Origin: a phage
Reading direction: 5' to 3' (one strand)
Length of the DNA stretch: 64,000 nt
Sequence record: OZ346167.1
Shown here: piece after piece, positions 60,538 to 62,359 of the stretch
How the letters are laid out: the number at the start of each line of letters is the position of its first letter
How positions within the stretch are numbered: position 1 is the stretch's first letter
Notes under the pieces: generated by a model
The model's input: only the letters and a program-made list of their open reading frames with translations
What the model was told of the DNA's origin: nothing
Databases searched by the model: none
Made by a program: the position numbers and the translations under genes

Positions 60538-60615
60538 GGGAGATTGACGGTAATTGGTAAACCTACCATCCTTAGAAGTTGGTGTTTGAGGGTTCGAATC
60601 CCTTGTCTCCTACCA
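60538..60615 (+). tRNA. tRNA, anticodon TAG (Leu) by manual fold, short variable loop
   Basis: acceptor GGGAGAT/GTCTCCT, T-arm GAGGGTTCGAATCCCTT. Confidence 0.5.
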
Positions 60616-60622
60616 AATTAAT

Positions 60623-60698
60623 GCAGGTGTAGCAAAATGGTTATGCGGCTGACTCTTAATCAGTAAGACGATGGGTTCAATTCCCTCCACCTGTACCA
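60623..60698 (+). tRNA. tRNA-Lys (anticodon CTT)
   Basis: paralog of 58977 tRNA with compensatory stem changes; loop CTCTTAA. Confidence 0.6.
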
Positions 60699-60704
60699 GA
60701 CATC

Positions 60705-60780
60705 GGGGTCATAGTTTATATGGTTAAAATTCGAGTTTTGCAAACTTGGGAACTGAGTTCAATTCTCAGTGACTCCACCA
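60705..60780 (+). tRNA. tRNA-Ala (anticodon TGC)
   Basis: loop TTTGCAA, T-arm CTGAGTTCAATTCTCAG. Confidence 0.65.
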
Positions 60781-60786
60781 ATTAGT

Positions 60787-60861
60787 GCATCCATAGTTTA
60801 AACGGGAAAATTACAGTCTTCCAAACTGAGGTTGAGGGTTCGATTCCCTCTGGATGCTCCA
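60787..60861 (+). tRNA. tRNA-Gly (anticodon TCC)
   Basis: acceptor GCATCCA/TGGATGC, loop CTTCCAA. Confidence 0.7.
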
Positions 60862-60875
60862 AATTAAGGTGTGAT

Positions 60876-61289
60876 ATGAAAATATGCAGTACTTGCAGAA
60901 TACCAAAAGATGAAAGCTTATTCCATAAGAATAAGAACAAGAAAGATGGTCTTCAAAGTCAATGCAAAGACTGTGCAAGACTTCGTGATGCAAAGAGTTA
61001 TCAAGCAAATGATAAAAGGAAAGAGGCTATTAAAAGCACTCGTAACTTCAAGAGAGAGTATAACAAGACTCTAGCTAGAAGGTACAAAGCTTTATGCAAA
61101 TGTCATATATGTGGTGAGAAAGAACCAGTTGCATTGGATTTACACCATACAGACCCTTCCCAGAAAGATTTGAATACTGCATCACTTTATTCATACTCCA
61201 CAAAAAGATTAAAAGATGAAATCAGAAAGTGCATTGTCTTGTGCGCTAACTGTCACAGAAAAGTACATGCTGGTATCATAAAAGTTTAA
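60876..61289 (+). CDS. HNH endonuclease inside the tRNA array
   Basis: CSTC...CKDC, LDLHHTDP, CANCHRKVH. Confidence 0.7.
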   Translation: MKICSTCRIPKDESLFHKNKNKKDGLQSQCKDCARLRDAKSYQANDKRKEAIKSTRNFKREYNKTLARRYKALCKCHICGEKEPVALDLHHTDPSQKDLNTASLYSYSTKRLKDEIRKCIVLCANCHRKVHAGIIKV

Positions 61290-61290
61290 T

Positions 61291-61367
61291 GCTGCTTTCG
61301 TATAATTGGCTATTACACATCCCTTGTAAGGATGGAAATGCAGGTTCAAGTCCTGTGAGCAGCACCA
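61291..61367 (+). tRNA. tRNA-Thr (anticodon TGT)
   Basis: anticodon arm CATCC-CTTGTAA-GGATG. Confidence 0.7.
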
Positions 61368-61463
61368 ATTCAGAGGTCAAGTGAAAGACCGCTTTGAGTC
61401 AACTGAAGACCGTAACAAATTCCACGGAGTTGAGTTAGCGGCACAACTTCAGACCTCTTTCAC

Positions 61464-61538
61464 ACTCGCTTAGTTTATATGGTAAAACATCACCCTTACA
61501 AGATGAAGAAAAAGGTTCAAGTCCTTTAGTGAGTACCA
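61464..61538 (+). tRNA. tRNA-Val (anticodon TAC)
   Basis: loop CTTACAA, T-arm AAAGGTTCAAGTCCTTT. Confidence 0.65.
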
Positions 61539-61539
61539 T

Positions 61540-61617
61540 GTTCCAGTATCCCAATTGGCAGAGGATGCAAGCTCAAACCTTGTATTAGTGACGGTTCGAA
61601 TCCGTCTTGGAACACCA
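61540..61617 (+). tRNA. tRNA-Leu (anticodon CAA) by manual fold, short variable loop
   Basis: anticodon stem covaries with paralog at 62281; loop CTCAAAC. Confidence 0.55.
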
Positions 61618-61636
61618 ATTTTAAGAGGCTATTTAG

Positions 61637-62194
61637 ATGAGATATTTGAAGTATGCTTCATGGATTTTCCTAGCTTTACTAGAGCCATTTGCAGCAACCC
61701 TAGCAGTCATCTTAGCACCTTTCGTAGTTCCATTCTATAGTGAGAAGAAAGGACACCTACCTTTTGGATTCAGATGGATGGAGGCCTATGACAACCCGAT
61801 TGATGGTGATAAAGGCCACGTTGAGAGATGGGCTAAGATTAGAAAGATTGGTAAGCTAGGTGTTTATATGCAGAGAGTTGGATGGCTCTGGAGAAACAAA
61901 GCTTATAACTTCTCTTACCATGTATTAGGAAGAGATGTAAAAGATGTTACTAAGTGGAAAGGTAATATCAACGTAAGTTCTGACCCTGAAGATAATCAGA
62001 CTGGTTATCTCCTAATGTGGAACAGTAATGCTTGGGGATTATTCGCTTTTATCCCATCAATTAAAGTCTTTGGTAAACAATTTTACTGGAGAATTTATGT
62101 TGGGTGGAAACTAAAAAGTGTTGTCCCAGAAGAAAGAGCATTCTCAAGGGAAAGAGTTATGTTGGCATTCTTTATTCATCCACTGAGAAAGTAA
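61637..62194 (+). CDS. Membrane protein of unknown function embedded in the tRNA array
   Basis: 185-aa ORF with hydrophobic N-terminus WIFLALLEPFAATLAVILAPFVVPF. Confidence 0.55.
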   Translation: MRYLKYASWIFLALLEPFAATLAVILAPFVVPFYSEKKGHLPFGFRWMEAYDNPIDGDKGHVERWAKIRKIGKLGVYMQRVGWLWRNKAYNFSYHVLGRDVKDVTKWKGNINVSSDPEDNQTGYLLMWNSNAWGLFAFIPSIKVFGKQFYWRIYVGWKLKSVVPEERAFSRERVMLAFFIHPLRK

Positions 62195-62202
62195 AGATTT
62201 AA

Positions 62203-62278
62203 AGGGGATTAGTTTACAAGGTTAAAACCTCGGTCTTTGAAATCGAAGAAGTTGGTTCAATTCCAACATCCCCCGCCA
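62203..62278 (+). tRNA. tRNA-Gln (anticodon TTG)
   Basis: anticodon arm TCGGT-CTTTGAA-ATCGA. Confidence 0.65.
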
Positions 62279-62280
62279 AT

Positions 62281-62359
62281 GCTCCATTACTCCAATTGGC
62301 AGAGAGGCCAGACTTAAAATCTGTGTTATGTATCGGTTCGAATCCGATATGGAGTACCA
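62281..62359 (+). tRNA. tRNA-Leu (anticodon TAA) by manual fold
   Basis: loop CTTAAAA, T-arm ATCGGTTCGAATCCGAT. Confidence 0.55.

Follow-up and report, generated by a model that had tools for sequence, protein, structure and literature searches.

Three genes for leucine transfer RNAs (tRNAs), located in a stretch of phage DNA of 64,000 nucleotides (nt) from the sequence record OZ346167.1 (the whole stretch is referred to below as the window), possess a type I architecture, in which a short unpaired variable loop takes the place of the long variable arm. The genes tRNA-Leu(UAG) (60538–60615), tRNA-Leu(CAA) (61540–61617) and tRNA-Leu(UAA) (62281–62359) all lie on the plus strand, and their variable loops comprise 5, 6 and 7 nt (UGUUU, AUUAGU and GUUAUGU), respectively. 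The genes themselves, their fold with its conservation and covariation in related phages, the full complement of known identity elements and the codon usage of the phage were observed directly. We consider it likely, from the comparison of sequences and by analogy with described systems, that all three are working type I tRNA-Leu, which the leucyl-tRNA synthetase (LeuRS) of the host would charge via the discriminator base A73 and the elbow of the molecule, and which would supply decoding of the codons UUA, UUG and CUA.

A database sequence search indicated that positions 60400–62700 are 97.5% identical to Salmonella phage Felix O1 and have highly similar counterparts in 256 phage records, almost exclusively from Felixounavirus or related Ounavirinae, with Escherichia, Salmonella, Shigella and Citrobacter as hosts; the source of the window is a Felix O1-like phage of the genus Felixounavirus. 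The three genes are already carried as tRNA-Leu in the GenBank entries of Felix O1 and more than 200 relatives and are not new in themselves; what remained was the structural claim, put forward in a preliminary description of the window, that their variable arms are short.

ARAGORN predicted tRNA genes of 78, 78 and 79 nt (75, 75 and 76 nt plus CCA) for Leu(UAG), Leu(CAA) and Leu(UAA), and the Rfam tRNA model RF00005, with a gathering score of 29 bits, matched them at 40.0, 44.0 and 47.5 bits; both searches returned the positions, lengths and anticodons (TAG, CAA and TAA) given in the preliminary description. The variable regions in the ARAGORN cloverleaves are 4–5, 5–6 and 7 nt long, the range depending on whether the 26:44 pair is counted, and both these cloverleaves and a position-by-position layout bear out the 5–7 nt proposed earlier; the RF00005 alignment also places a short variable region in all three genes. 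In each gene, the acceptor stem comprises 7 bp and leads into A73 and a CCA end present in the DNA; a 7-nt anticodon loop with U33 (CUUAGAA, CUCAAAC and CUUAAAA in the UAG, CAA and UAA genes, respectively) and a T-loop UUCGAAU of the UUCRANY type are likewise present, and all three score above the threshold, as canonical tRNAs do. A stem-loop variable arm of more than 10 nt, which characterises class II tRNA-Leu, is lacking in all three; a leucine anticodon (NAG or YAA), A73 and a variable loop that is short (about 5 nt) and unpaired, the marks of type I tRNA-Leu, are present in all three. The anticodons UAG and UAA correspond here to the leucine codons CUA and UUA/UUG and are not readers of stop codons. 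All 20 stem pairs of Leu(CAA) are standard and Leu(UAA) has one mismatch, C27·U43; both tRNAs contain A73, U8, A14, A15:U48, G18G19 and A20a. In Leu(UAG), A73, A14, A15, U48 and G18G19 are present, together with C·U in the D stem, U·U at 30:40 in the anticodon stem and one additional nucleotide at the junction of the acceptor and D stems, as compared to its homologue in the T5-like phage BF23.

Other gene boundaries concealing a long arm, which the preliminary description had named as the finding that would overturn its claim, were looked for and excluded. Since the acceptor stems, the A73-CCA ends and the closely abutting neighbouring tRNAs fix the ends of the genes, a long arm cannot be accommodated; Leu(CAA) starts 1 nt past a tRNA-Val gene, and Leu(UAA) fills a gap of 86 nt between two tRNA-Gln genes. 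As for the check with tRNAscan-SE proposed at the same time, the annotation of the related Shigella phage ESh21 gives the three homologues as tRNA-Leu of 75–76 nt without CCA. In the same cluster of tRNA genes, two tRNA-Ser (90 and 93 nt) and a tRNA-Tyr (88 nt) were drawn by ARAGORN with the long variable arms of class II.

Single-sequence energy folding did not recover the cloverleaf for the UAG and UAA genes (z = −0.3 and −1.6, respectively), and poor energy folding is common for unmodified tRNA sequences; because of this outcome, the case for the cloverleaf is built on tRNA-specific models and covariation instead of thermodynamics. Compensatory changes had been noticed earlier in the anticodon stems of the CAA and UAA genes; they are real (A–U to G–C and G–C to A–U), and the comparison of these two paralogues, which share a core identity of 70%, revealed eight double compensatory changes among the 20 pairs, these two included, distributed over all four stems; of two further changes, one is single and keeps the pair, and the other affects a pair that deviates from the standard in the UAA copy. 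Leu(UAG) is nearly identical to its counterpart in Felix O1, save for a swapped anticodon stem (CCAUC/GUUGG in the window versus UCUCG/CGAGA in Felix O1), where three double compensatory changes are found and the U·U mismatch is mended to C–G. The anticodon stem of the window gene (60566–60582, with U30·U40) resembles that of BF23 (CCGUC/GUCGG), unlike that of Felix O1, and the rest of the gene is Felix O1-like, which suggests patchy recombination or gene conversion between the tRNA genes of unrelated phages at this stem.

A test that does not depend on tRNA finders used a scan of viral contigs with the pattern AATTGG, 13 nt, CTYARA, 13–19 nt and GTTCRANTC, which sets only the loop motifs and a short distance from the anticodon loop to the T-loop and which gave at least 120 matches. 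Segments of 77 nt were cut at fixed offsets, and 78 of the 90 distinct sequences, together with Leu(UAG) of BF23 and of phage Moogle, made up a gapless alignment of 80 viral homologues. When this alignment was read on a class I cloverleaf having a variable loop of 5 nt, 96.0% of the cells were in standard pairs, as against 57.5% in shuffled controls and 34–46% with the pairing partners slid by 1–3 columns; 639 cells had changed on both sides of a pair, compared to about 190 in shuffles, and 19 of the 20 pairs covary. A73 is invariant and U48 is conserved in at least 90% of the 80 homologues, neither base being part of the scan pattern. The cloverleaf with a short variable loop is real in all three genes, and the type I architecture, termed class I-like in the preliminary description, emerged in every test run.

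The bacterial tRNA-Leu had been described there as normally class II, which is right for the enterobacterial host, as the leu genes of Escherichia coli demonstrate, and agrees with the literature (PMC6614811). Leu genes leuZ, leuX and leuW of E. coli K-12 were laid out position by position against the three phage genes, with which they share the anticodons, an 11-nt D-loop design (RAAUYGGUAGA in the host genes, YAAUUGGYARA in the phage genes), U8, A14, A15, U48, U54, U55, C56, A58 and A73; when the class II tRNAL1 of phage T5 is added to the host genes, the shared D-loop reads RAAYYGGYAGA, with G18G19 and A20a, and the anticodons, U8, A14, A15:U48, the T-loop and A73 are still held in common. 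One major architectural difference was found: the variable region comprises 13–15 nt with a helix in the class II genes of the host, and likewise 13 nt in that of T5, versus 5–7 unpaired nt in the window; the extra D-arm nucleotide of Leu(UAG) is a further, lesser one. The core identity of the window genes to the host isoacceptors is only 43–61%.

Published work on leucine identity in E. coli indicates that neither the anticodon nor the long arm is crucial, and that a minimal tRNA-Leu devoid of both the anticodon arm and the variable arm is still active if A73 and the contacts of the D-loop with the T-loop are retained (PMC9976931; PMC6614811). The set of elements for E. coli LeuRS includes A73, U8:A14, the Levitt pair A15:U48, G18G19 with A20a, U54:A58, G18:U55 and G19:C56 (PMC9976931; PMC6614811). 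All bases of this set occur at the expected positions in the three genes at the level of sequence, the tertiary pairs being deduced from them; one published LeuRS feature is tied to the long arm, and a loop of 5–7 nt offers nothing directly equivalent to it. In 238 viral loci among the matches listed, A73, A15 and U48 occur together in 91% of short-arm and 91% of long-arm tRNA-Leu, versus 17% of other class I tRNAs; the combination is also found in 81% of 48 short-arm tRNA-Leu lying outside the scan pattern, including those with the anticodons GAG and AAG.

The tRNAscan-SE isotype models put leucine first for all three homologues in the Moogle-like phage Sf14, in a paper that makes no mention of the variable region (PMC12482277). 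The scores of the Sf14 Leu(UAG) homologue are close to one another (Leu 67.4, Ile2 65.7 and Lys 63.4; PMC12482277) and the hallmark class II arm is missing, so one might suppose that tRNAs with leucine anticodons are charged with another amino acid and that UUR and CUA are recoded in the phage proteins. Such recoding is extremely improbable: besides the first rank of leucine in Sf14, the leucine-specific D-loop, A15:U48 and A73 are as frequent in the short-arm genes as in long-arm tRNA-Leu. Under the identity rules (summarised in PMC9976931), the synthetases for lysine, arginine and isoleucine rely on anticodon bases that are absent from the three tRNAs, and, without the long arm, the main handle for seryl-tRNA synthetase (SerRS) is gone. 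Moreover, about half of the leucine codons in the open reading frames (ORFs) of the window are UUA, UUG or CUA, so every protein would be altered.

The charging of the three tRNAs by the host enzyme, in turn, can be considered in the light of phage BF23 (NC_042564), the tRNAL1 of which is 84.6% identical to Leu(UAG) of the window. BF23 tRNAL1 is also a type I tRNA, 77 nt long, with a 5-nt variable loop, U30·U40, A73, an encoded CCA end and a leucine-type D-loop, and it also lies inside a tRNA cluster of a phage with an enterobacterial host; it differs in lacking the additional nucleotide at the junction of the acceptor and D stems and in being the sole tRNA-Leu gene of its phage, versus three in the window. 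A suppressor test is noted in GenBank for BF23 tRNAL1, whereas the leucine genes of the window are known from sequence: according to the GenBank note, replacement of the anticodon by CUA turned tRNAL1 into an effective amber suppressor in E. coli, and, therefore, tRNAL1 is processed, charged and used by E. coli ribosomes. The question of charging raised by the preliminary description probably has a ready answer, as the arm is not an identity element in E. coli, the known elements are kept and the BF23 homologue suppresses.

The Leu(UAG) gene of phage T5, also named tRNAL1, is 85 nt long and belongs to class II with an arm of 13 nt; it lies beside tRNA-Ala and is likewise annotated as convertible to a suppressor. 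The T5 gene (11625–11709 of locus L365) and the BF23 gene (3881–3957 of locus L001) are unrelated to each other and occupy the same slot by tRNA-Ala, and the T5 copy is adjoined by a homing-type HNH gene, hegC. The difference looks like a cassette replacement within the tRNA cluster, and the two close relatives thus have the two architectures interchangeably.

Several points weigh against charging by the host LeuRS. The GenBank note on BF23 tRNAL1 is silent on the inserted amino acid, so that its leucylation is itself inferred, and tRNAs with an amber anticodon can be mischarged. Fan et al. reported that E. coli LeuRS failed to charge the type I tRNA-Leu(CAA) of Streptomyces coelicolor and described the enzyme as type II only; the leucine-specific domain of E. 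coli LeuRS was reported to favour a large variable region (PMC6614811), and, therefore, the charging of the phage tRNAs may be slower than that of the host tRNA-Leu. Expression, processing, modification and leucylation are, for all three tRNAs, presumptive, and Leu(UAG) combines two stem mismatches and the additional nucleotide in its D-arm region with an Rfam score below those of the other two.

The S. coelicolor tRNA resembles the phage tRNAs in its 5-nt variable loop and in its occurrence beside class II tRNA-Leu in one cell with one LeuRS, and U8:A14 is important in that system too (PMC6614811). It differs in that it is chromosomal, has C48, is not charged by E. coli LeuRS and needs features of the leucine-specific domain of the Streptomyces enzyme, for which A73 is not an identity element (PMC6614811). 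Its type II sibling and the three phage tRNAs have U48, and the rejection of the S. coelicolor tRNA by E. coli LeuRS may be due to the missing A15:U48 rather than to the missing arm; perhaps it is the Levitt pair that decides. In the same work, 5 nt was the shortest variable loop giving good charging (PMC6614811), and this minimum fits the phage loops of 5–7 nt. Animal mitochondrial tRNA-Leu also combines a short variable loop with A73 and A14 as identity elements (PMC9976931), but is served by a dedicated mitochondrial LeuRS that also touches the anticodon stem, and its D- and T-loops are often degenerate, unlike the fully canonical bacterial elbow of the phage tRNAs.

The irregularities of Leu(UAG) can also be viewed as signs of decay, in the sense that one or more of the three genes, most plausibly this one, is degenerating or serves no translational purpose, being a pseudogene, a processing signal or a decoy. 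This is quite unlikely. Its Rfam match of 40 bits, the extra D-arm nucleotide and the C·U and U·U mismatches would be consistent with it, as would a single-sequence fold no better than that of shuffled sequences (z = −0.3) and the presence in the cluster of at least one aberrant tRNA-like element (59459–59537). But U30·U40 also occurs in BF23 tRNAL1, an effective suppressor, the extra nucleotide is kept in Felix O1 and ESh21 and is found in metagenomic relatives too, and A73, CCA, A15:U48 and the T-loop of Leu(UAG) are intact; furthermore, the differences between relatives are compensatory and Leu(CAA) is 100% identical across three genera-level relatives.

The short form was present in every member of the Ounavirinae sampled: Felix O1, Moogle and ESh21 have three such genes each, and the identical Leu(CAA) is the one shared by the window with these three phages, while Leu(UAG) of Moogle is type I with another sequence. 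Type I forms of Leu(CAA), Leu(AAG) and Leu(UAA) also occur in Erwinia phage BoyaciRG1 (Kolesnikvirus), with the same D-arm and other acceptor stems. To obtain an estimate that does not favour the short form, a viral scan was anchored on tRNA-Tyr and all flanking tRNA-Leu were classified (at least 120 matches). Among the matches listed, the variable region measured 8 nt or less in 14 of 71 tRNA-Leu (20%); counted by locus, 29 had long-arm tRNA-Leu only, 7 short-arm only and 3 both. In the same sample, 81 of 82 tRNA-Ser were long-armed, and tRNA-Tyr is long by construction of the pattern. Nearest neighbours of the viral short-arm tRNA-Leu are also short-armed in 88% of cases versus the 61% expected, a weak clustering, and some pairs of short and long tRNA-Leu are 88% identical in the core, their acceptor and T arms being the same. 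With pairs of this kind, a single origin of all viral short-arm tRNA-Leu is unsupported; the arm seems, from these comparisons, to have been lost or gained repeatedly, making the short form a recurrent state and not one clade.

In bacteria, tRNA-Leu has been described as "almost all type II" (PMC6614811). A scan of bacterial genomes, one per species, gave at least 120 matches, and ARAGORN called a short-arm tRNA-Leu in 118 of the 120 loci listed; in 78 of these 118, it is the sole tRNA within 8 kb, most of these solitary genes being tRNA-Leu(UAA) from Actinomycetota (Nocardia, Mycobacterium, Gordonia, Arthrobacter and Bifidobacterium). About 30 of the listed loci are dense arrays of 5–31 tRNA genes, and no Enterobacterium is among the bacterial short-arm loci listed. 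In many Actinomycetota, the chromosomal type I tRNA-Leu(UAA) stands alone and is near-identical in sequence, GCCCCCAUAGCCCAAUUGGCAGAGGCAGCGGACUUAAAAUCCGC... (loci L245–L364, for instance L245 from Gordonia, L249 from Nocardia and L250 from Mycobacterium), which points to a wider occurrence of type I tRNA-Leu in this phylum than the single Streptomyces example of the literature would indicate.

The enrichment of the short form in phages, with about 20% of viral tRNA-Leu among the matches listed as against the near absence stated for bacteria, and the retention of long arms by tRNA-Ser (81 of 82) and by tRNA-Tyr wherever it was seen, might suggest that the arm was shortened adaptively rather than lost neutrally, which would keep leucine decoding going when a nuclease or another defence factor attacks tRNA-Leu, or type II tRNAs in general, via the long arm. 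Human SLFN11 cleaves type II tRNAs selectively, and this counts in favour of such an adaptation; we know of no bacterial nuclease that reads the variable arm, and this counts against it. Rescue of infection by phage tRNAs in the face of tRNA-cleaving defences is known (cited in PMC10644984; PMC10264068), and nucleases that fragment tRNA-Leu exist in the host range, namely the Salmonella Gifsy-1 terminase (PMC11610961) and the HEPN protein of Retron-Kva2; but the reported cuts of both fall in the anticodon loop, and the Gifsy-1 target is the CAG isoacceptor, which is not encoded by this phage, and the two were rejected as drivers of arm loss. Bacterial Schlafen was likewise rejected as a type II-specific driver: the characterised protein cleaves the anticodon arm of tRNAs for lysine, methionine, alanine and others, with no type II preference reported. 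The class II Leu(UAG) that T5 holds in the slot of the type I form of BF23 indicates that the arm is evidently tolerated, and type I tRNA-Leu are ordinary chromosomal genes in many Actinomycetota. We, thus, regard adaptation to an arm-directed attack as unlikely. The broader proposition, that arm loss is a recurrent and selected phage strategy yielding good LeuRS substrates that escape the host nucleases, toxins and modification or quality-control enzymes reading the class II arm, seems doubtful to much the same degree; if true, it would make the arm-less tRNA-Leu a structural counterpart of the anticodon-loop escape mutations already described for phage tRNAs.

Returning to the reading in which the three tRNAs are charged by the host and used in translation, no synthetase was found among the window ORFs of at least 450 amino acids (64 kb of the genome of about 86 kb being covered), where the large ORFs encode a tail fibre protein, primase-helicase, ribonucleotide reductase, NAPRTase and others; a phage-encoded LeuRS is, therefore, rejected within the window, and charging must rely on the host. 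In 55 long window ORFs (38.8% GC), leucine is encoded by TTA in 24% of cases, TTG in 15%, CTT in 27%, CTC in 7%, CTA in 12% and CTG in 14%. In E. coli, CUG makes up about half of the leucine codons and CUA about 4%. The three anticodons cover codons used more by the phage than by the host, which fits the usual role of phage tRNAs in codon supply.

The published identity rules and the GenBank note on BF23 suggest that the tRNAs are expressed, leucylated by the host LeuRS and used in translation. The three genes would be transcribed as part of the cluster of 25 phage tRNA genes and released by the host RNase P and 3' processing, the CCA end being already encoded; the host LeuRS would then attach leucine, presumably reading A73 and the shape of the elbow and core (U8:A14, A15:U48, G18G19 in a leucine-type D-loop with A20a, and U54:A58) independently of the anticodon and of a long arm. 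Leu(UAA) is predicted to decode UUA and UUG, Leu(CAA) to decode UUG, and Leu(UAG) to decode CUA and probably CUG and other CUN codons; the codons decoded would be ones heavily used by the AT-rich phage and poorly supplied by the host.

Type I tRNA-Leu is already established in animal mitochondria and in S. coelicolor (PMC6614811), and BF23 tRNAL1 has stood in GenBank with functional notes for years. No description of the type I architecture of phage tRNA-Leu was found in the accessible literature, including the papers on phage tRNAs (PMC12482277, PMC10644984 and PMC10264068); the older papers on T5 and BF23 tRNAs lay outside the search and may contain an earlier notice. The phage short-arm tRNA-Leu are real and conserved, and are predictable from the known identity rules; it is mildly surprising that they are so frequent in phages and that they stand in contrast to the published description of E. 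coli LeuRS as charging type II only. In textbooks and recent papers, the long variable arm passes for a hallmark of bacterial tRNA-Leu, and type I is seen as a curiosity of mitochondria and some Streptomyces, whereas here a lineage of coliphages and Salmonella phages brings three type I tRNA-Leu to a type of host said to charge type II only. These tRNAs offer a natural set of substrates for asking whether an LeuRS of the E. coli type needs A15:U48 with the elbow, or the arm, and T5 (class II) and BF23 (type I) offer a matched natural pair for the same question. Pipelines for annotation and classifiers of isotypes whose training relied on cellular tRNAs may give short-arm tRNA-Leu poor scores, and short tRNA-Leu inert to SerRS could be useful scaffolds for the design of suppressor or orthogonal tRNAs. 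The view of tRNA identity is unchanged, since the known rules foresaw that such molecules could work; the census of variable-loop lengths would merit a short note.

The cluster to which the three genes belong extends over 57425–63554 and contains 25 ARAGORN calls, all on the plus strand, with small ORFs in between; a comparable gene order is found in Felix O1, Moogle and ESh21. The small ORFs at 58019–58462, 59775–60179 and 60876–61289 (plus strand) gave no Pfam match at E ≤ 0.001; the Felix O1 counterpart of the last one is annotated as an HNH endonuclease, and the presence of such ORFs between the tRNA genes varies among relatives, a pattern expected for mobile homing genes. Directly upstream of the cluster, the ORF at 55844–57259 (plus strand) contains the domains DUF2828 and DUF7788; its counterpart is annotated as an "RNA-binding protein" in Felix O1 and Moogle, and its position beside the tRNA genes is conserved.

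The aberrant element at 59459–59537 (plus strand) matched the Rfam tRNA model at 31.7 bits and received no ARAGORN call. Its acceptor stem of 7 bp is good, and A73-CCA, a T arm and an anticodon arm with the loop CUUCUAA (UCU, arginine) are in place, but the D arm is shrunk to about 4 nt and the variable region has an insertion of 20 nt; in Moogle and ESh21, the same slot holds an intact 77-nt tRNA-Arg(UCU), the acceptor stems of which are unrelated. The stretch of 121 nt at this site is kept at 95% identity or more in 117 of 121 matching phage records, and 10 of the 12 records listed have no annotation there, the other two having only a hypothetical protein. At 61618–61636, the window is without the tRNA-Arg(ACG) that lies between Leu(CAA) and a DUF7338 ORF in Felix O1, Moogle and ESh21; compared to 5218–5425 of Felix O1 (locus L239), about 188 bp are missing. 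With this gene absent and the UCU element aberrant, the phage has no arginine tRNA that ARAGORN could call. Three further genes called by ARAGORN fall below the Rfam gathering score, namely tRNA-Met(CAU) at 57677–57753, tRNA-Tyr(GUA) at 57923–58010 and a 71-nt tRNA-Trp(CCA) at 59690–59760; RefSeq marks the Felix O1 tRNA-Tyr as a pseudogene, and the 71-nt tRNA-Trp is also present in T5 and BF23.

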